Assembly: GCF_988243305.1 (NCBI RefSeq)
Contig: NZ_OZ547136.1
DNA: 64,000 nucleotides
Strand: one strand, 5' to 3'
Part shown: positions 39,474 to 50,326 of the stretch, piece after piece
Numbering within the stretch: position 1 is the stretch's first letter
Layout of the letters: the number at the start of each line of letters is the position of its first letter
Notes under the pieces: model-generated
Database searches by the model: none
Told to the model about the DNA's origin: nothing
What the model saw: only the letters and a program-made list of their open reading frames with translations
Translations under genes and position numbers: made by a program

Positions 39474-40544
39474 TTATTTAATCCGGGCCATCGCGCTTCT
39501 CAGTGCCAAATCTGCCTCTTCCGTTATCTCCAGACTTTTCTGCAACACCGTTTCTGACCGGGACAGTGCCTGACGTGCTGCCAGCGGTTTCCGGATATGC
39601 TCCATCGTCAGCATCGTGTCCTCGTAGCCCTGCTGACGCCAGGCGTCGGTATGTGCCGACGTGAAACTGAGCAGACCGCCACTGTTGCCACCATCACCTG
39701 CATATTTCAGCCTTTTCCGGGGACGGATCTCAAGGATTGTGGTGTCCGGAAAAGCCTGGCGATCCCATAAAGAACCGTCACTCAGATGCGACACAATCAC
39801 CATATTGCATCCGGCATCGACCAGAGGCGTTACAGGGGTATTTCCCTGCATATTTCGCCATCCTCCCATACCACCATCACCGAACATTGTCCCCTGAACC
39901 TCACGGGGACGGAACAACAGGGGCAGTGCGGCTGACGCAAGCAGAGCCTCTTTCTGCTGTCCGCGGGGCAGACTCTGGATATGCTGAAAAACGGCGTTTT
40001 TCGTGGTTCCGGAACCCAGTTCAGCACGAATGCAGTCAATAATATCCTGCATGCCCCCTTCTGTGGGGTACAGCGACACATACAGCGGTAGCCCGTCTGC
40101 CAGAGCATCTGTATCAAGATAATGATCCATCAGCGCTGTCAGGGGCCCATCTGACAACAACGGCTGAGTCATCGGATTGTCGAAGCCGTTGATTATCGAT
40201 ATATGGCGAAGAAGTGTCGTAAGCAGTGCTCCTGCACGTCCGGGGATCTGGCAGAGGTTCATTGCCTGGAACAATTTTTTCAGCAATGAAAAGTAAACCG
40301 ATCGGTTTACCGACAGCACCTGATTATTCCCAAGATGATCCCAGAGCGCCTCCAGGCGTACGGCAGCTTCTGACAGATCGGGAGAGGCCGCGATAATGGC
40401 ACCATTGAATGCGCCAATGCTGGCCCCTGAAACCATGCTGATCTGTGTACCACACTCTGCCAGTGCCTTAACCACTCCCGCCTGATAAGCGCCCACCGCC
40501 CCACCGCCGGACAGCACCAGCCCTGTTTTTATTTCTATACTCAT
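39474..40544 (-). CDS. Patatin-like phospholipase
   Basis: 356 aa; oxyanion motif SGGGAVGAYQAG, nucleophile GASIG (GxSxG), catalytic Asp in FGDGG; ATG overlaps stop of upstream gene (ATGA). Confidence 0.85.
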   Translation of the reverse strand: MSIEIKTGLVLSGGGAVGAYQAGVVKALAECGTQISMVSGASIGAFNGAIIAASPDLSEAAVRLEALWDHLGNNQVLSVNRSVYFSLLKKLFQAMNLCQIPGRAGALLTTLLRHISIINGFDNPMTQPLLSDGPLTALMDHYLDTDALADGLPLYVSLYPTEGGMQDIIDCIRAELGSGTTKNAVFQHIQSLPRGQQKEALLASAALPLLFRPREVQGTMFGDGGMGGWRNMQGNTPVTPLVDAGCNMVIVSHLSDGSLWDRQAFPDTTILEIRPRKRLKYAGDGGNSGGLLSFTSAHTDAWRQQGYEDTMLTMEHIRKPLAARQALSRSETVLQKSLEITEEADLALRSAMARIK

Positions 40545-41446
40545 GCAGCCCCCTTCTGAAATATTTCATCGACCATACTTTCAGAGAGGCGTTCTGCAGA
40601 GCAGAGACGGGGCATGCGAACCGGTAAGTGTTCTGCAGCCTGCGTGGTTGACCAGATCACCGGATGCTGCTCTTCACTGCACCAGTCCCCCAGCCAGTTA
40701 ATCGCGTCATGCCACTCGTTATCTGCCTGCTCCCGGCCCTGACCACCAAGCCAGTCCAGAGTGTTCAGACGCACGGTTGCACTACCGCCACTCTCCTGTG
40801 CCATCTGCGTTAATGCTTTATGTCTGAGAATATCCAGTAGCTGGTTAACCTGGCCTGTTTCGCCCTGACGTATCACATCACCAAACGCGCCCCAGCGAAG
40901 CTCTTCAAGTGCCACATAACAACGTCCGGCAGGGGAAAATGACGCATATCGCCCGGCGCTCCACCAGGAGAATATCTGCTCAAGATGTAACTGCGCCCGC
41001 TGAACCAGGTCAACACGGTGGAGTTTTTCTTCAAGATGATTCAGTTTCTGGTGAACCTGATCGGCCAGGGTGAGTAACTGCTCCCGCGTATCTGCGGAAT
41101 AATGCGCCAGCCTGGCAGTATCACTGACCAGTGAACTGACCCTGTCGTTTACCCGGGTAATCGCGTAGTTTGTGGTGGCAAGTGACGTTGTCAGCTCCGT
41201 CAGCCAGCGCAGGGACGCCTCAACGCCCTGTGCAAGCGAAGCATTGATGGCATTCTGCCGTGCAGCACCTTCGCCGCTCAGCCCCTCTTTTAACCGCCGG
41301 AAGAACGTGCGCTCTCCGGCCGTACGGATATGCTCCTGTGCAACATCAATACCGTTTGCGAAATCAACCACAAATTTTTCAGGAAGACAGGTGAGTACCT
41401 GACATACCCGGTTATCAGCAATTTGTTGAATAAATGGTGAAGTCAC
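40541..41446 (-). CDS. YjcZ-like protein (partner of dynamin-like GTPase)
   Basis: 301-aa ORF; GTG start overlaps dynamin stop; family call from memory of chromosomal crfC-yjcZ pair. Confidence 0.65.
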   Translation of the reverse strand: MTSPFIQQIADNRVCQVLTCLPEKFVVDFANGIDVAQEHIRTAGERTFFRRLKEGLSGEGAARQNAINASLAQGVEASLRWLTELTTSLATTNYAITRVNDRVSSLVSDTARLAHYSADTREQLLTLADQVHQKLNHLEEKLHRVDLVQRAQLHLEQIFSWWSAGRYASFSPAGRCYVALEELRWGAFGDVIRQGETGQVNQLLDILRHKALTQMAQESGGSATVRLNTLDWLGGQGREQADNEWHDAINWLGDWCSEEQHPVIWSTTQAAEHLPVRMPRLCSAERLSESMVDEIFQKGAA

Positions 41447-43827
41447 AGCATTGTCTCCAGTTCTTCCCTTAACGCCTTACTGTCAGTAATGAGCTCAGGA
41501 ACCCTTTCATTTAACGCCTGAAGACGCCCGGTCAGCCGTTCCTGCGCCTGCTGATCGCGTTTATGATCTTCAGAGCTCTGAATCAGCGTGTTACGCAGCT
41601 GTTCAACTTTCTCCCTGAATGTACAGAAAAAGGCATCGATTTCCTGGCGGACGGGCTGGTTAATATCCTGCTCAATGGATGCCTGCAGCTCCCCGAAATA
41701 TGCCCGGGTCAGTGACATCACTTCCTCTCTGACCTTGTTGATATTGATCACGCTGCGGCTCACATCCACACTGTACTCTTTCCAGCCCCAGTCACTGGTG
41801 TTTGCCCATCGACAAAGCGTACCCCAGACACCATCCTGTCGACAGCGACGGGTTACTGTCTCCGTTCTTTCCTCCATAAGCGCGCTCAGATTTGTTTTTA
41901 CTGCGAGCCGGGTCTGTAACTGGCTGACTGCCGGAAAACTGATTTTTACAGTGAAACCTTCATCCTCCAGACGGGCATTGATGCGTCCGGCAATATTTTC
42001 TGTGGCGTACAGGGCCGTACCACGAAAACCTGTTTCAATACCCCTGACGATTTTTTCCAGTTCAGGACGGAACTGTGCTTCAGCCTCACGGTGCAGGCTG
42101 GTCACGGTCGATTCGATTTGCGTCATCAGTTCAAGGGCTTCCCTGCGATCACTGAATTTTATTTCGGGGCTGTCCGGATCAAAGTCCCGCATCCTGTCAT
42201 GCTGATTTCCGGTTCCGAAAATATCGTGAAAGAAAGCGAATGCGTTTCTCTCCCGGGGCTGCGCTGAATTTTCTTCCTCCAGCATTTGCTGTTCTTTGCG
42301 TTTACCGCTTCTGAAATAGTCATTCAGCTCCTCTTCCAGTGAGGTGCAGACCCCCGTCAGTAATTCCCGGGTTCTGGCATCGATCTCCTCCATGGCCATT
42401 CTGACATCAGCGGTCACCTGCTCCTGACAGTCCGCGATTTCCCGGATATCCGCAAGCAGGCTGGTGATATGCGACTGCAGTGACTGAATGCTTTGCTGTA
42501 GCCCCTGATGGCGTAATGACAGATATTCGCTGACATTTTCCGCATTCTGCATCAGTTTTGCGGCGGCAGAATCAACCGCCAGTGCCGCCGCTCTGGAATG
42601 GGAGCTCTGTATGACTTCCGTTATCAGTTGATCGATAAGTGAGCCTTCCCACAGGTCTGTCGCCCCTTCGGTTGCCATTTCACTGTCTTTACAGACGTAT
42701 TCTTTTTTCATGCGACCGAAGGCTTCCCTGACAAAATCATCGACCCAGGCTTCATCAACAGGAAGGGTTCTGTTTTTCCGTAACTCATGAAGCGCACGGT
42801 TAGCCAGGTACGCCTGACGTGATGAGCCTGGATAAACGCGGGAGGCGGGCAGCACATCGCTGTTCAGCATTGCCGGAACTTTCTGGCGTACGGCATCTGC
42901 CCCATCGCCATTGCGGTCTTTCTCATCAAATTTATTGACCAGCACAAACAGGCGGCCAGCTGATACGTCAGCAATGGCATTAAGCTCTTTACGGACGTCT
43001 TCATCCGCTTTTGAGTTCATCTGGGTGTAATCCATCACCGCCAGCACCGCAGAGGCTTTCTGCAGTTGATCCCGCATCATCACTTCCATCTGCGGTTGTC
43101 CGGCCTCATTAGGGCCGGGGGTATCCAGCAGTGTGAGTGTTCCCTGGCATGGATCCATCCCCACCAGATGGCTGAATTCCACGTCGATCACCGGCAGTTT
43201 CTGCACTTCTGCGTATTCATCAAAAGGAAACTCACTCCCCATTGCCGCAGCAAGGCGAACCAGATCGTTTAACGATGCCAGTCCGGTAAAAATTTCCTCC
43301 TCCCCGTGGTATTCATTTTTGAGCCAGCCATCATTTGCCAGAATATCCAGCAGTTCGCAGGTATCCCCGGTTTGCTGCAGGGTCTGTGCGACTTGCTGTC
43401 CTGCCGGGGTGTCGAGTTTTTGTTTCAGTGTGCTTAATAAATTGCGGACGGGCTGAATATGTTCCAGATGGAGGACCGGCTCAGTTTTTCCGGGAACGTG
43501 GCGGATGAGCGTCGGTACAGAGGTCATGGGGCGGTTACGGTTAGGCAGAATTTCCTGCCCCACAATGGCGTTGATGGTGGTTGATTTACCTGCTTTCATC
43601 GTGCCGACAACAGCCAGCACCATCTCCCTGCGGGCGGTTTTGATTTGTTCGCCCTCCAGCTCCTCAATTCTTTTCAGTGCTTTCTGTTTATCAAAAAGCA
43701 GTCTGTTTTCGTTCTTACTGTCAGATAACACATCCGGCTCATCAACCATTTGCCGGAGCAGATTAATGTTCAGTTGCAAAAGTCGGTCGGCTTCATCACA
43801 AAGCAGGGCGATGTTCTTTTCGTGCAT
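41443..43827 (-). CDS. Bacterial dynamin-like GTPase (CrfC/YjdA- and LeoA-like)
   Basis: 794 aa; G1 GTMKAGKST, G3 DTPGPNE, G4 NKFD; long helical C-terminal region; RBS AGGAAGG upstream of ATG 43827. Confidence 0.85.
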   Translation of the reverse strand: MHEKNIALLCDEADRLLQLNINLLRQMVDEPDVLSDSKNENRLLFDKQKALKRIEELEGEQIKTARREMVLAVVGTMKAGKSTTINAIVGQEILPNRNRPMTSVPTLIRHVPGKTEPVLHLEHIQPVRNLLSTLKQKLDTPAGQQVAQTLQQTGDTCELLDILANDGWLKNEYHGEEEIFTGLASLNDLVRLAAAMGSEFPFDEYAEVQKLPVIDVEFSHLVGMDPCQGTLTLLDTPGPNEAGQPQMEVMMRDQLQKASAVLAVMDYTQMNSKADEDVRKELNAIADVSAGRLFVLVNKFDEKDRNGDGADAVRQKVPAMLNSDVLPASRVYPGSSRQAYLANRALHELRKNRTLPVDEAWVDDFVREAFGRMKKEYVCKDSEMATEGATDLWEGSLIDQLITEVIQSSHSRAAALAVDSAAAKLMQNAENVSEYLSLRHQGLQQSIQSLQSHITSLLADIREIADCQEQVTADVRMAMEEIDARTRELLTGVCTSLEEELNDYFRSGKRKEQQMLEEENSAQPRERNAFAFFHDIFGTGNQHDRMRDFDPDSPEIKFSDRREALELMTQIESTVTSLHREAEAQFRPELEKIVRGIETGFRGTALYATENIAGRINARLEDEGFTVKISFPAVSQLQTRLAVKTNLSALMEERTETVTRRCRQDGVWGTLCRWANTSDWGWKEYSVDVSRSVININKVREEVMSLTRAYFGELQASIEQDINQPVRQEIDAFFCTFREKVEQLRNTLIQSSEDHKRDQQAQERLTGRLQALNERVPELITDSKALREELETML

Positions 43828-44026
43828 TATTTAACCTTCCTGAGACGCATTTTCATGACAACCACGGAGGAGGTCATTTACTACAAACGATCGTTTATAA
43901 CGATCGATATACTCTATTAACTTGAGAAACACAACGCAAGGGGACAACCCGGGTATGGCTGCGTTTGCATAGTGTTTTCATGGAGTTAAAAATCTGTAAC
44001 AATAGCCTGGTACATCACCACCGGGT

Positions 44027-44899
44027 TCAGAAGAAAATCCAGTTCCATACCGCGCGGGCAACAGAGACCACCGAGTCACGGACGGCTCGCAGAACCGTAC
44101 GAGCCACAGAGGCAACACAGACGCTCTCCGCTGTGTCAAATATCCGGTCCACCGCACCGGTAAACTGTTCACGGGCCTGAGAGCGGACAGACTCCGTGCG
44201 CAGTTCGTCCTGCAGGCGGGTCATCAGGGGGCTGGCGGCATGGTCGGGAAGCGCTGTCATGAGCGCACTGACCAGCGTATCCAGTTCCCAGCCGGTGCAG
44301 GCCGATACGGCCACAACCGGATGTACGGGCCGGAACAGCCGGAATACCGCCTCCGTTTTCTCACGAATGTTCTGTGCCTGTGCGGGAGAAGGCTGAATGC
44401 CGGCCATATCCCATTCATGGCAGGGCTCCGTTTTGTCGGCCTGCGTCACCACAAACAGCACCTGCTGATGTCCCCGGTGCAGGATGTGTCGCCAGAAATA
44501 CTCATCCACAGACAGGGCACGGTCATCGGCTTTAATCAGCCACAGTACCAGGTCAAGTTCAGGCAGAATGTCACGGTACAGGGCTTCATACTCTGCATCC
44601 CTGTCCCGGCTCTCGCCCACCCCGGGCAGGTCAGTGATAATCATGCTGTGACCGTGGCCACTCAGACGGAAGCGCCGCACTTCCCGGGTGCCGGCGTGAA
44701 CATCACTGACCGGGGTGACCTCCCCCTGAAACAGCGCATTACAGAGTGAGGATTTACCGGCCCCGCTTTTACCCATAATGCCAATCACGGGTTCGTGACT
44801 GGTGAGTTTGCGCAGATGTTCCTGGATGTGACGGGAAAGTGAGTAAGGCAGGGAGGAGAGCGGTTTTTCAATTGCCTCAATGGCATCAGACGGATTCAT
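44027..44899 (-). CDS. YfjP/YeeP/YkfA-family GTPase of CP4-like islands
   Basis: ATG 44899 (MNPSDAIEAIEKPLSS...); P-loop GIMGKSGAGKSS, DLPG; possible upstream GTG start at 44962. Confidence 0.8.
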   Translation of the reverse strand: MNPSDAIEAIEKPLSSLPYSLSRHIQEHLRKLTSHEPVIGIMGKSGAGKSSLCNALFQGEVTPVSDVHAGTREVRRFRLSGHGHSMIITDLPGVGESRDRDAEYEALYRDILPELDLVLWLIKADDRALSVDEYFWRHILHRGHQQVLFVVTQADKTEPCHEWDMAGIQPSPAQAQNIREKTEAVFRLFRPVHPVVAVSACTGWELDTLVSALMTALPDHAASPLMTRLQDELRTESVRSQAREQFTGAVDRIFDTAESVCVASVARTVLRAVRDSVVSVARAVWNWIFF

Positions 44900-44983
44900 A
44901 CATGTATTCCCGGTGAAAAAAGACAAAACCCCCGCACACCGGAAAGGTGGCGGGGGACTCACAGAGATAATATATGTCTGAAA

Positions 44984-45901
44984 TTATCTGGAATGTCGGT
45001 ACCTTTTATACTCTTCAACAATCAGGTCATGCAGCATTTCGCCGGTACTGAGTCTTCTGACCCTCGATAATTCTTTGAGCTGCGCCCTGGTTTCTGCGTC
45101 AAGAAAAAACTGTACATTGACTTTATCTTCCTGCATTTTTTTGTACTTGCGCTGCGCCTTGGCCTTATTGAAACTGTTTCTGAAATTTTTTATATCGTCA
45201 GGTGAGGTGAGTGTACAGGTAACCCATATGTCAAATGAAAGGTGAATTGCGTGGTAAATATCAGCAGAACCAGGAAAACTGGCCAGTTTTTCCAGTGCAA
45301 TATTTTTTCCCTTCAAATAATTCCATGTCCATATGCATTCATGTTCGTTCTCCGGGAGGAGGTAACTGAAAGGACTCTTTGATTTAAATGCCCGTATCCA
45401 TCTGTCTTTGGTCTGGATTATCCACTCATCCCGCAAATTCTTATCAGAAAGAATATCGAGAACTCTGAGTATTTGTCTGAACTGTGTCGATGAGTCCGAC
45501 GGGAAGGCATTCCCTTCTAAATACTCTTCTTTAAGATACAGTTTATTCTTTTGAAGCAAGTCTGCACTTATTTTTGCCCTGTTATTCTGGATAAACTGCA
45601 TCAACAGATACCAGGAAAATAAGCATGCGCGTTCACTGCCCGCGATCCAGGATATTTTTTCCAGGGGGACCAGGAAGGCCTGGGCCTTCAGACGCATACC
45701 AGAAATGATTTGTTCAAGTTCAAAATCTGAAAGTGTGATGTTCAGATTTTCTCTGTTTTTTTTTATGTAAGCGATAAAACGTTCCGGGGGATCATAAACA
45801 TTAAGGGGCAGTACGGAGATATTACGCTCTCCAAGATAATAAGAGTAATACGCATTTGTTCTTTCATTCATAACCTTATCCGACAAAATTTTCTGAACCA
45901 T
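44984..45901 (-). CDS. AT-rich hypothetical protein with C-terminal ribbon-helix-helix-like segment
   Basis: 305-aa ORF; RBS GGAGAAAGGGG; C-terminus VQFFLDAETRAQLKELSRVRRLSTGEMLHDLIVEEYKRY resembles an RHH DNA-binding fold; base composition visibly lower in GC than neighbours. Confidence 0.7.
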   Translation of the reverse strand: MVQKILSDKVMNERTNAYYSYYLGERNISVLPLNVYDPPERFIAYIKKNRENLNITLSDFELEQIISGMRLKAQAFLVPLEKISWIAGSERACLFSWYLLMQFIQNNRAKISADLLQKNKLYLKEEYLEGNAFPSDSSTQFRQILRVLDILSDKNLRDEWIIQTKDRWIRAFKSKSPFSYLLPENEHECIWTWNYLKGKNIALEKLASFPGSADIYHAIHLSFDIWVTCTLTSPDDIKNFRNSFNKAKAQRKYKKMQEDKVNVQFFLDAETRAQLKELSRVRRLSTGEMLHDLIVEEYKRYRHSR

Positions 45902-47101
45902 CCCCTTTCTCCGGTTGCTTAAAAATTAAACACAACAAGGTGATAATAACATGATAAAAAGAAGTTTATAATGGTATATTAAGGTGGTCAATAAAAAGGC
46001 AATCTGCGCACTGTATAGTCATTATGACAGGAAATGCAGGAGGAAGGGAAGGTAACCGGCTTCGTTATGCTGACAGGAATACCTGTTATCATGGAAGTGC
46101 ATTCATGTGGCCGACGTAGCTTAAGAGGATGGAAGAGTGGAGACTGCAGACAGGGGGTATTGAAAGGTAAACATGTTTCGCCCGCCAGCTGCACCGGAGG
46201 CCAGCATCACTTTTTTTACGTTGTAACCTGGTATGCATTCCGGCTTTGATGATTACAGTCAGAGGGCAGCAGACTGACGTTATTTAACCGGACAGCAAAA
46301 TTATGGACACTGAAATATCGTCCGTTAATACCTCGTTTGTCGGTGTGGTATTCCCTGTATTACCGGCGTCACCGATAAAGAGAGTTATAAACGCCAGAAA
46401 GGTACCTGCTTTATGCCGGGGAACACTTATGGAAAATGAAGTCTGAAAAGGAGCACAATGAAAAGAGACGTGTCCCGTAAATATAACGAATCATCGCAGG
46501 ATATGCATTATCAGGTGATACCAGAGTGCATTAAACTGCCGTCACGGATAAGAATATACAACATTTCTGATAACAAAACATCATAACGTGTTTCAGATAT
46601 GTTCCGGCATCAGTCTGACGGATATTATTTCCCGGGAAAACAAACCTGCTACTGTGACGGTTAACTGTATCTGCATAAATTATTTATGATGAAAGAACAG
46701 TATTACGGATTCAAATATCATCCTGTTTGCATTCAGGCGGACATTCCCGGATGCCGAAAAGAATATCCTGCAGGCTGAGTGAGTCTCTTCCACAGTGCCG
46801 GGATCGCTGTCGCCACGTACATATTGTCACCAGGATGGGTATGTACCGCAGCATGCCATTTCTGGTGAATAACCGCACCTGCACATTCAGTCTGCTGAGA
46901 ACCTGGCGTGCATCGGGCTGTAAAGAACATCCCTGTCCGTGGCTCCTCTGGTGGTGTTGCCTGCTCAGTAATGACAGGATGCCCTTAAGACGCCCGTCAT
47001 GGCTCAGTATGATGACGACGAACACGCTCTGCAGGTGAGCATGCGGGGCCGGGAGCATCATCATTTCCGTATTTTGTCACACCTTCCGGAAGCAACCGGC
47101 A

Positions 47102-47719
47102 TCAGTTGCGGTTATCGTCAACCGTTGTGCGGTATGCCAGGAGCACGTACTGATCCATCAGATCCGTCAGTGCTGCGCTCTGCCTCTGACGGTTGATGAT
47201 CCATTCCTCCAGCTCTTTTTCTGATTTCCGTTTCAGGTTCTCTTTCCAGTCTTCAAGGCTGTTTCCGGTCATTAAATCAAGCCAGCAAAGCCAGACCAGT
47301 TTGAGGCGCAACTCCGTGCCACCAAACTGACGGAAGAGGCTAATCAGTTTATTTGCCAGAGAACGCTGCCTCAGACGTTCACATTCAGACAGGAGAATGC
47401 CTTCCAGCATCGGATGATGAACCAGCAGATGTTCACTGGTGCATAAATTCACTATCAGATCATCATCCAGGGGCGGCGTGGCCCGTTTGTCAGGGCCATA
47501 AATCAGCCGGTGCAGGCTCTGGGGTACGATGGCAATCTCCGGTTTTTCACCATTGAATGACACCCACCCGGGCGTCAGATTATGGAAGTAGTAGATATTC
47601 GGATGACACACGCCCCAGGATACGGCGTGCCGGGTGAAGCCGGTCAGCCATTTCTGGTAGCTTTCGTGGAGCAGTTCGTAACGGGTCTGATACTGTTGTT
47701 TCATTTTCATATTCCTCAC
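47102..47719 (-). CDS. Hypothetical protein (205 aa) downstream of alpA-like gene
   Basis: Uninterrupted ORF; no family recognised from sequence alone. Confidence 0.6.
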   Translation of the reverse strand: MRNMKMKQQYQTRYELLHESYQKWLTGFTRHAVSWGVCHPNIYYFHNLTPGWVSFNGEKPEIAIVPQSLHRLIYGPDKRATPPLDDDLIVNLCTSEHLLVHHPMLEGILLSECERLRQRSLANKLISLFRQFGGTELRLKLVWLCWLDLMTGNSLEDWKENLKRKSEKELEEWIINRQRQSAALTDLMDQYVLLAYRTTVDDNRN

Positions 47720-47798
47720 GGGGATATAACAGGCAGCAGAATGCCGCCGGCAGGCCGGGGATTACGTCTGCTGCGGGTGAACGGATAACGGTCAGAAA

Positions 47799-48005
47799 TT
47801 ACGGACGGGACTGTGCAATACGCGCCTGCAGCCAGGCTTCCACTTCACTTTTCAGCCATCGGGAACTGCGGCCCAGCTTGATGGGGGCCGGAAAGGCCCC
47901 ATCCCTGATGAGTTTGTAAAACCACTTATCGGTCAGGCCAGTCAGTTGAGTGATAAACGCCATGTCGACCATCTGGTCATCCATCAGTGAAACTGGGGTG
48001 GTCAT
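47799..48005 (-). CDS. AlpA-family prophage transcriptional regulator (excisionase-like HTH)
   Basis: 68-aa form from ATG 48005 after RBS GGAGG; MTTPVSLMDDQMVDMAFITQLTGLTDKWFYKLIRDGAFPAPIKLGRSSRWLKSEVEAWL. Confidence 0.8.
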   Translation of the reverse strand: MTTPVSLMDDQMVDMAFITQLTGLTDKWFYKLIRDGAFPAPIKLGRSSRWLKSEVEAWLQARIAQSRP

Positions 48006-48911
48006 GAGAATGTTCCTCCGGATGTTGTTAATCTCAACCGGCGTTGGTGATGAAAACAACGCACCACCTTCACCGGCATAACAACCGGGGAGAAACGTAA
48101 AAAATAATCGGGAATGTGACCGCCAGGAGATAAACGGGGGGATTGCGGTGGCTGAGCCGTACCGGTATGTCGGGTGGTTGTTGCGAAACGATGCTTCCGC
48201 ACGCGATAAAGGAGGGAGGACTTTCGTGAGACAAGGGGAAAACTAGCGTTCTGATAATTGCAGAGTTGTTTTTGAAGGCGGTTGTGGTATATCAGCCTGT
48301 GACCTGTGGGCAGGCGACAGTTATCACTGGTGGGATAATACTGTCTGATTGGTATTATAAATATATAAGAGAGATCAAACACATGAGATCAAACACATGA
48401 GTTCATATATGTGAAATAAATCTGTGAGTGTGATCAGCAGACCAGTCTACCCAGTAGCAACAGATTGCGTTGTACTCACAGGGTTATCCCTGATAACTGG
48501 CGTATAACCTGCGTACATAAAACGTACCTGCAATGCACCTGAACAGAGTGCATTAAGCATCCGCCTGAGCGGTAAACGTATCCGATCTGGTGAGTGACAG
48601 TCTGAGAGCATTCTCAGTAATCGCCCCCTTGTATCCTGGAAATTGGTTAAGATAACAGCGATTAGATTTGGCAAGGTGTATGCAGCCAGCAGCTTAACAT
48701 CTCAGCTAACTGGCTGGTTACCTTCAGGTTGTCGCAATGGCATCGGACATCCGGTGTCGGATAACTAAACGTAGCGTTAAGGCGATATTGCTGAGAGACC
48801 GGTTAAGTGGTTGCACGGGAGTAATGAGTTTGGGGAGGGCACCAGAATGCCAGGTTGGTGCGGTATGCTGACAGCATCCTGTTAACCGCAGCATAAAGTA
48901 ATGAGAGGCTA

Positions 48912-49124
48912 ATGGAAGTTAAAACCAAAGAAGACTGGCTGTATCAGCTCCGTCGTTGTTCATCCCGGGAGACACTGGAAAAAGTGATTTCCCACACACG
49001 TTATAAACTTACCCCTGCGGAGCTGGAAGCCTTCAACTCTGCGGTCGATCACCGGCTGGCAGAACTGACAATGAACAAGCTTTACGATCGCGTGCCGGCT
49101 TCAGTCTGGAAATATGTCATCTGA
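48912..49124 (+). CDS. Small hypothetical protein (70 aa)
   Basis: ORF with upstream GAGAGG; no family recognised. Confidence 0.4.
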
Positions 49125-49756
49125 GCGTTCGGTAATCACAACGGCATCGCGCCAGGTGTTATCCGCTTTGTGATTCTTATTGGCTCTTCTCAGGTTATTA
49201 AAAGCTGAATATGTTCCTGTTGTCGGGAACCAGGATAATGTCGGGAACGTTAAGCTGTATAACGACAACAAAGAATTCGAAATCAAAAGGGAATGGTGTA
49301 CGGAGGTGTGGACGGTAATGGGCCGATTTTCGGGCATTACCGACCTCTGCTGAGGTTTTCTCGTATTTCTGGGGATCCGGTGAGTTACTGTCACTGTCTG
49401 GCACAGCAAGCGCAGAGGCGGCGGGGCGCTTTGCTCCGCTGATTCCGGATAATTCCTCCCCTGTAACCTACCGCAACAGTACAAATACACTGACGCCTGA
49501 AACGACAGCCAGAATCAGCACAAGCCACAATCCCTGCACACCGTTTTGCGTATCACCATAACGCCTCCTCACAGCCTTACCCGTAACCGGTTTTTTACAT
49601 TAAAAAAACAACGCTGGGAATTCAATCGTCAGTCCGGAGACGACAGTCGGGTTATCACAGAGTGCCTGAGACAGTGTCCTGCCGGAGGTCACCTCAGGGA
49701 CTCTGCACATTTTTTACAGCGTGGCTATTCCGTATGAACCATACGGAGATTTAACC

Positions 49757-50326
49757 ATGACCTACAAATACAACCCCTTCTGGCAGCAACGTATTCGTGA
49801 GACGGTGCGGCACGCACTGAATGTTCATCCCCGCCTGACGGCATTGCGGGTTGACCTGCGTCTCCCGGATGTACCGGCAGCAACGGACGCAGCTGTGATA
49901 TCCCGCTTCATCAATGCCCTGAAAGCCCGAATCGACGCTTACCAGAAACGTAAGCATCGGGAAGGTAAACGCGTGCATCCCACAACCCTGCATTACGTCT
50001 GGGCCCGGGAGTTTGGGGAGTGCAAAGGTAAAAAACACTATCACCTGCTGCTGCTGGTCAACCGGGATACCTGGTGTCGTGCCGGTGATTACCGCGCTCC
50101 GGGGTCACTGGCCGGGATGATTAAACAGGCCTGGTGCAGTGCCCTGGGAGTGGATGCCGGACGTTATGACACGCTGGCACATTTTCCGGTCAGGCCGGCG
50201 GTGTGGCTGGAACGCGATGATGACACCGGCTTTCAGCAGGTGCTGGAGCGTGCTGACTATCTGGCGAAGGAGAGTACCAAAGCTTACGGCACCGGTGAGC
50301 GCAACTTTGGCTGCAGTCGTGGCTGA
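49757..50326 (+). CDS. YagK/YfjJ-family (inovirus Gp2-like) protein
   Basis: ATG 49757 after RBS GGAGAT (MTYKYNPFWQQRIRETVRHALN...); family typical of CP4-like islands. Confidence 0.7.
   Translation: MTYKYNPFWQQRIRETVRHALNVHPRLTALRVDLRLPDVPAATDAAVISRFINALKARIDAYQKRKHREGKRVHPTTLHYVWAREFGECKGKKHYHLLLLVNRDTWCRAGDYRAPGSLAGMIKQAWCSALGVDAGRYDTLAHFPVRPAVWLERDDDTGFQQVLERADYLAKESTKAYGTGERNFGCSRG

Follow-up and report, generated by a model that had tools for sequence, protein, structure and literature searches.

The 1.2-kb gap at positions 45902-47101 of the window, by which we mean the entire 64,000-nt stretch of DNA analysed here, is quite probably composite: a control region that is still live, the fossilised regulatory module of the island itself and a drifting spacer make it up, and it is as a whole a mostly non-functional scar lying beside that control region. 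The sequence following the control region is homologous to the 5' end of AlpA-family regulator genes, the control region itself is homologous to its counterparts in related islands, and the gene order differs from theirs. The gap exists as described, can be accounted for and is ordinary; all that is new in it is a pseudogene relic without annotation and a conserved box upstream of the 305-aa gene. Its import beyond annotation is little, and the explanation covers an 'empty' 1.2 kb that recurs in roughly one of every four complete E. coli genomes. The features discussed below are collected in Table 1.

Table 1. Features of the gap and of its surroundings, in window coordinates.
Feature	Position	Strand	Remarks
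Dynamin-family protein, 794 aa	41443-43827		adjoins RdcB-family and patatin-like genes
YeeP/YfjP-type GTPase (MMR_HSR1)	44027-44962		Pfam
305-aa AT-rich gene (X-gene)	44984-45901	minus	no Pfam or NCBIfam family
Ancestral control region upstream of the 305-aa gene	45902-46302	minus	blastn, nhmmer, five-taxon alignment
Conserved 24-nt box GTTATTATCACCTTGTTGTGTTTA	45927-45950	minus	26-49 nt upstream of the 305-aa ATG
Best sigma-70-like match (TTGACC, 17 nt, TAAACT)	45963-45991	minus, facing the 305-aa gene	9 of 12 matches; predicted
Palindrome AAACATGTTT, core AACATGTT	46169-46178		distal conserved block; five-taxon alignment
AlpA' pseudogene relic	46303-46484	plus	frameshifted, middle deleted, divergent orientation as in relatives
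Probable p205' relic, first ~75 codons of a second p205	~46563-46702	plus	stops and ~80-nt deletion; weaker support
Island-specific segment, 76 bp	46703-46778		specific to islands carrying this 305-aa gene
Tail	46779-47101	minus	downstream of functional p205; common to E. coli-type islands (L004-L007, L040-L043)
p205 (functional), 200-205 aa	47102-47719	minus	no Pfam family; AlpA directly precedes, always
AlpA-family regulator (functional)	47799-48059	minus	Pfam Phage_AlpA 1.4e-8; RefSeq start 48005
Hha-family ORF, full-length	48912-49124		Pfam HHA 5e-28, profile positions 2-57 of 57
YagK/YfjJ 'inovirus Gp2' protein (YagK_YfjJ_C)	49721-50326		Pfam

Extent, coding content and distribution of the gap

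The gap separates two genes on the minus strand, an AT-rich gene for a 305-aa protein (the X-gene), which starts at 45901, and a 205-aa ORF referred to here as p205, whose stop codon occupies 47102-47104. The first-pass annotation had seen no convincing ORF between them, the longest being of 117 aa, and this description is accurate to the nucleotide. The longest complete ORF inside the gap is indeed 117 aa long (46711-47064, minus strand); in 500 dinucleotide-preserving shuffles of the gap the longest ORF averaged 92 +/- 23 aa and 117 aa was reached in 13% of cases. Since the ORF lengths are at the level of the shuffles, the ORF content is that of non-coding DNA. RefSeq annotation places at most one or two 65-aa 'hypothetical proteins' here in the E. 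coli genomes inspected. Among the stretches of the window without an ORF of at least 150 aa the gap ranks second; the longest, 47720-49720, contains AlpA and the Hha-family ORF, the counterpart of which is a truncated pseudogene according to RefSeq in the two closest genomes inspected.

The gap is present at full length, with 95-99.8% identity and in a chromosomal location every time, in 1285 of 5426 complete E. coli genomes, and is a stable feature and no quirk of assembly. The island is found, with 97.9-98.3% identity, in O104:H4 2011C-3493 and in ST131 strain 4224. Of the two matches labelled 'plasmid', one is to an E. coli record of 0.8 Mb and the other to one of 4.9 Mb, both probably chromosomal, and phages gave no match to the gap sequence. 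A tandem-repeat scan of the region (TRF) returned nothing relevant, and a literature search turned up no work on this region. Variable columns among nine E. coli copies amount to 2.7-6.7% in the gap and 4.1-5.8% in the flanking genes; the gap varies about as much as its neighbours, so divergence within E. coli is too low to prove the left part neutral. An exact 10-nt inverted repeat, CCGGTTGCTT / AAGCAACCGG, lies roughly 10 nt inside each end of the gap (45911-45920 and 47090-47099). On a rough calculation, chance alone should produce about one match of this kind per 1.6 kb; E. coli-type islands keep the right copy, and other genera do not keep the left one. The repeat is probably due to chance.

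Gene order in the window and in related islands

AlpA, a YfjP/YeeP-type GTPase and a YagK/YfjJ protein co-occur in the window, each recognised by Pfam, and together make up a CP4-57-like backbone. Directly after the YeeP-type GTPase, at ~38000-43827, the window carries genes for the dynamin-family protein, an RdcB-family 'diguanylate cyclase regulator' and a patatin-like phospholipase; strain Ecol_448, where the context of the control region is near-identical, has an Ag43 autotransporter in place of the dynamin, RdcB and patatin genes.

Seven homologues of the 305-aa protein, 49-79% identical to it, turned up; the nine contigs that carry them come from Salmonella, Serratia, Enterobacter and Edwardsiella, from a second E. 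coli lineage and from two unidentified sources. A separate set of 17 loci from species-representative genomes was recovered with a p205 alignment. In Salmonella, Serratia, Enterobacter and Edwardsiella the homologue occupies a position equivalent to that of the gene in the window; the module that opens with it in relatives continues into a YeeP/YfjP-type GTPase. Wherever neighbours could be placed in these relatives, the X-gene and then the GTPase run in one direction while AlpA, p205 and Gp2/YagK, in that order, run in the other, the X-gene and AlpA being separated by a joint divergent control region of 400-600 bp. This divergent order is seen in Salmonella, Serratia, Enterobacter, Yersinia, Hafnia, Photorhabdus and others, and also on a single divergent contig from E. 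coli. The window and the E. coli variants L004-L007 depart from it: here the AlpA-p205 pair is co-directional with the X-gene/GTPase side, opposite to the relatives.

In the comparison with other islands that had been proposed as a check of the gap, the control region matches the relatives and the tail matches E. coli-type islands. The E. coli variants L004-L007 and L040-L043 match the right part of the gap alone, from 46779 or 46822 to 47101, as a continuation of the p205 homology, and in place of the left part and the 305-aa gene they carry other sequence. E. coli BL21 (L002, NZ_CP060121.1, 3080-5294) has kept the 305-aa gene and the first ~150 bp of the control region, a remnant that is joined directly to a truncated tyrosine integrase beside tRNA-Phe; the AlpA-p205 module and the remainder of the gap are deleted.

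The control region of the 305-aa gene

The left third of the gap is colinear, from the ATG of the 305-aa gene onwards, with the divergent intergenic region between AlpA and the X-gene of Salmonella, Serratia and two other relatives. Matches to the relatives reach E values of 1e-25 to 1e-41 by nhmmer, and blastn aligns 45917-46221 with locus L010 at E 9e-25. Identity with the copies of Salmonella, Serratia and related islands is 61-68% in the control region and about 75% in the coding sequence. Within the five-taxon alignment a proximal block is nearly invariant and a distal block is conserved.

Close to the gene lies the 24-nt box. Hardly any change is seen in its core, CCTTATTnTGTTTA, not even in Enterobacter, in Edwardsiella or in the second E. 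coli lineage. Its conservation there exceeds that of the adjoining coding sequence, the protein identity being 49-53% in these three; because the box is better conserved than its gene, it is likely to be a cis-regulatory element. The best sigma-70-like match faces the 305-aa gene, and its -10 part is conserved in the five closer relatives and not in the three distant ones. In the distal block, the palindrome core is invariant in all five taxa and extends in relatives up to GTGAACATGTTCAC, which makes it a candidate operator. The first-pass annotation had offered a promoter and long 5' leader of the AT-rich gene as one reading of the entire gap; the promoter half of this suggestion fits the first ~400 bp, judging from the colinear alignment with relatives and from the box, and no long leader need be assumed. 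The control region would be the working promoter of the 305-aa gene, and the conserved box and promoter-like site would still drive the 305-aa/GTPase operon. The box is also a concrete target for studies of regulation in these widespread cryptic islands, upstream as it is of a whole gene family.

A broader claim can be formulated, namely that the control region, and the box above all, is an undescribed cis-regulatory element, either an operator or a short RNA leader, that serves the X-gene/GTPase operon family-wide across Enterobacterales, was kept after the adjacent regulator died, and leaves the operon now under the relocated AlpA-p205 pair in trans or by read-through. Taken together as one proposition this is rather unlikely. 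A stretch of ~120 bp upstream of the functional AlpA (48006-48125) is a duplicate of part of the ancestral control region.

Relic of a second AlpA and probable relic of a second p205

Directly after the control region comes a sequence homologous to the AlpA genes of this island family, in the position and orientation that are conserved in the relatives. Its ATG is at 46303, a 4-nt deletion lies near 46353, after about codon 17, and the C-terminal codons with the stop are recognisable as GTCCCGTAAATA at 46472-46483, where the 3' end aligns to locus L024. A DNA profile built from 18 AlpA-p205 modules of other genera finds the real module of the window with nhmmer at E 4e-175 and, at E 5e-5, the plus strand of 46275-46392, the start codons coinciding. 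AlpA proteins from this island family match 46350-46412 (plus strand) in a shifted frame (tblastn E 0.001, hmmsearch E 0.035), which is exactly where the 4-nt deletion predicts the match to be. In addition, 31 nt at 46362-46392 match the functional AlpA at 47912-47942 in inverted orientation. Against Pfam PF05930 neither the frameshift-corrected nor the raw-frame peptides gave a match at E<=10. With its frame broken and its middle lost, the sequence is a pseudogene relic, AlpA', and no gene. An independent island lineage, L004, has an AlpA' relic of its own upstream of its own X-gene (E 0.006).

Past 46412 the similarity, that of the GTCCCGTAAATA codons included, is weak though consistent: the 80 nt after GTCCCGTAAATA match the AlpA-p205 spacer, and ~46563-46702 matches the first ~75 codons of p205, with traces of its FPG and LH motifs. 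When 46413-46778 was compared with the modules by nhmmer, all five matches of at least 2.5 bits fell on the sense strand in roughly colinear order, and a sixth, weaker one was sense as well; in 120 shuffles of this segment five same-strand matches never occurred (0/120), and the best score was reached in 2/120. The mappings overlap at 46590-46622 and are reconciled only by assuming a deletion of ~80 nt. Neither protein HMM searches nor Smith-Waterman alignment with shuffles recovered p205' at the protein level, and the module profile by itself gives nothing past 46392. On these nucleotide matches, 46563-46702 is probably a relic of the start of a second p205.

A full-length p205' relic reaching to 47101 was rejected, as no reliable match came from the protein HMM, from tblastn or from Smith-Waterman alignment with shuffles; a continuation beyond 46702 is unsupported, nhmmer of the tail and of a tail profile against the modules having returned nothing. 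The visual resemblance of a 42-aa ORF to the p205 N-terminus was likewise set aside, that ORF beginning inside the AlpA' C-terminal relic. One of the first-pass readings, decayed remnants of a former cargo gene, is half right: remnants exist, over ~400 of the 1200 bp, and what decayed was a second AlpA and probably a second p205, not cargo. Nor does a single ordinary pseudogene run across the whole region, which that annotation had named as the outcome that would overturn its description.

The tail and the recurrent insertion site downstream of p205

To the right of the relics, 46703-46778 has no match in other loci, plasmids or phages. The tail that follows diverges faster than the third codon positions of p205, being 89.7% identical to L004, with indels, and 66% identical to L005, the corresponding values for third positions being 94.5% and 79%. 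A deletion of ~107 nt in the tail is common to four of eight island types, one type is cut by IS3, and, among the matches listed, lineages differ in where their similarity to the window stops, with six end points in the tail. In other genera, homology between the tail and the p205-Gp2 intergenic region does not extend beyond 20-40 nt past the stop codon. The tail evolves like unconstrained sequence, neither coding nor under structural constraint, and drifts neutrally. A scan of 45700-47300 found no intrinsic terminator on the minus strand in the gap; with no terminator-like site on that strand read-through from AlpA-p205 is possible, and transcription of the pair may indeed continue through the gap.

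The region downstream of p205 is a recurrent site of insertion and decay of IS elements (IS21, IS3, IS1, IS66). RefSeq lists an 'AAA family ATPase' or 'ATP-binding protein' pseudogene there in L004 (3315-3694), L006 (3601-3735), L007 (4045-4478) and L041-L043, and these are IstB/IstA relics with the motif LLHHSTTLNIKGERYRLKEK. A cargo ATPase pseudogene was considered on account of these annotations in the related gaps and was dropped, as they are, by translation, IstB relics of IS21 and have no sequence in common with the gap of the window.

Origin of the arrangement

The arrangement can be pictured as follows. At the ancestral place the control region has been kept, followed on the plus strand by the original AlpA start (ATG 46303), frameshifted and partly deleted, and then by the fainter, probable trace of the original p205 start. 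The working AlpA-p205 pair, at 47102-48005, stands in the opposite orientation, so that the two copies lie tail to tail, with 46703-47101 between them in neutral drift. The second module would have arrived either through an inverted duplication or when two islands recombined, and the original copy would have decayed afterwards. Inverted duplication or recombination between two related islands is the most likely source of the E. coli-type arrangement, and the dead second AlpA-p205 copy in the ancestral position would be its record, an old event in either case.

Alternative explanations

Other readings of the gap have been weighed against the composite scar. The right part, 46703-47101, could be all that is left of a cargo gene or IS, unrelated to the module, that formerly lay downstream of p205. 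Other E. coli-type islands do have IS21 (IstA/IstB) and IS3 remnants at the equivalent position, and the six homology end points in the tail (among the matches listed) form the pattern expected of repeated insertions and deletions; however, 46703-47101 has no nucleotide or protein similarity to any IS, fetched locus, plasmid or phage, and the tail sits between p205 and the IS relics in other islands and is therefore older than those relics. We regard this reading as unlikely. An active invertible switch, in which a site-specific recombinase would flip the AlpA-p205 segment at a recombination site in the gap, could be read from the inverted position of the segment relative to other genera and from an 11-mer, AACGTAAAAAA, found inverted at 46212-46222 and 48094-48104, near the edges of homology. 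Yet this exact 11-mer is all that the segment borders share, and a match of its kind was reached in 10 of 500 shuffles. The full-length E. coli matches listed have the arrangement of the window and are colinear with it, three of them being split in two pieces, two by IS1; no partial match listed breaks at the predicted junction, around query position 320; and the opposite orientation is absent among the listed matches of the 1285 full-length genomes. The separate AlpA' relic, moreover, points to two copies rather than one flipped copy. As 11-mer matches of this kind occur in shuffles too, no listed match has the opposite orientation and the relic implies two copies, the switch is unsupported, and we consider it extremely improbable. 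A simple inversion between inverted repeats was rejected, again because of the shuffle result for the 11-mer and because the AlpA' relic means two copies.

A functional product of the gap, whether RNA or protein, was considered as well. A structured non-coding RNA, in the form of an sRNA encoded by the tail or of a long, folded leader to the 305-aa gene, would agree with the two blocks of the tail kept in most E. coli-type islands, with the local hairpins predicted at 46827-46868 and in the block immediately past the p205 stop, and with the box proximal to the 305-aa gene being more conserved than coding sequence. The covariance-model scan that the first-pass annotation had recommended for its own non-coding RNA suggestion speaks against it: cmscan with Rfam over 44000-50000, both strands, returned no match at E<=1, and ARAGORN found no tRNA or tmRNA. 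For the tail in eight island types RNAalifold gave, on the p205-sense strand, a covariation term of +2.42, positive values being unfavourable. In the divergent L005 type the pairs of the main tail hairpins are mostly broken and not compensated; the tail as a whole outpaces p205 third codon positions in divergence, and four types have the ~107-nt deletion. The RNA proposal is unsupported and quite improbable. A real small protein is very improbable. The 42-aa ORF (46458-46586, plus strand) has a strong Shine-Dalgarno-like AAGGAG 5 nt upstream, and PGAP calls hypothetical proteins at 46999-47196 (plus) and 46733-46930 (minus) in many genomes. Among nine E. coli copies, however, the 42-aa ORF has lost a net 15 nt in frame in two and is frameshifted by 2 nt in one, every one of its substitutions is non-synonymous, and its first codons are the AlpA' C-terminus and stop relic. 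The 117-aa ORF is frameshifted in L037 and interrupted by a stop in L004, and its relatives among 5.8 billion proteins are near-identical E. coli matches only. Across the E. coli copies each small ORF of the gap is either broken or altered by non-synonymous changes alone. Whatever the frame, synonymous changes account for 11-37% in the tail, with no excess of them, and Pfam and NCBIfam searches with the small ORFs gave nothing. The RefSeq 65-aa ORF at 46999-47196 overlaps the end of p205 in antisense and has a frameshift in L037; the two 65-aa proteins WP_001333284.1 and WP_001329788.1, at 46999-47196 (plus) and 46733-46930 (minus) respectively, are probably spurious.

Comparison with known systems

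The window resembles Enterobacterales islands of the CP4-57, CP4-44 and CP4-6 type in its AlpA (PF05930), its MMR_HSR1 GTPase (YfjP/YeeP/YkfA in those islands) and its YagK_YfjJ_C protein, and the K-12 elements CP4-57, CP4-44 and CP4-6 would, judging by their gene content, be members of the same backbone. The relatives and the closest E. coli genome contain further families of the CP4-57 type, namely DUF932, Antirestrict, RadC and CbtA/CbeA. What sets the window apart from the backbone of the relatives sampled is that the working AlpA-p205 pair is inverted and a decayed second copy stands at the original place.

The AlpA' relic is of a kind with the intergenic pseudogene relics of bacteria, whether of unitary or of duplicated genes: it is frameshifted and internally deleted, its start remains aligned, its synteny is conserved and no ORF survives. 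It differs from other such relics in having no RefSeq annotation in the E. coli genomes inspected and in being too decayed for Pfam. The control region, for its part, shares its layout with the divergent promoter/operator regions of phage- and island-type modules, in which some 400 bp likewise lie between the gene of a small HTH regulator and a divergent operon, with a conserved palindrome and promoter-like hexamers. Unlike in those systems, the regulator gene on one side is dead, and the region is still conserved.
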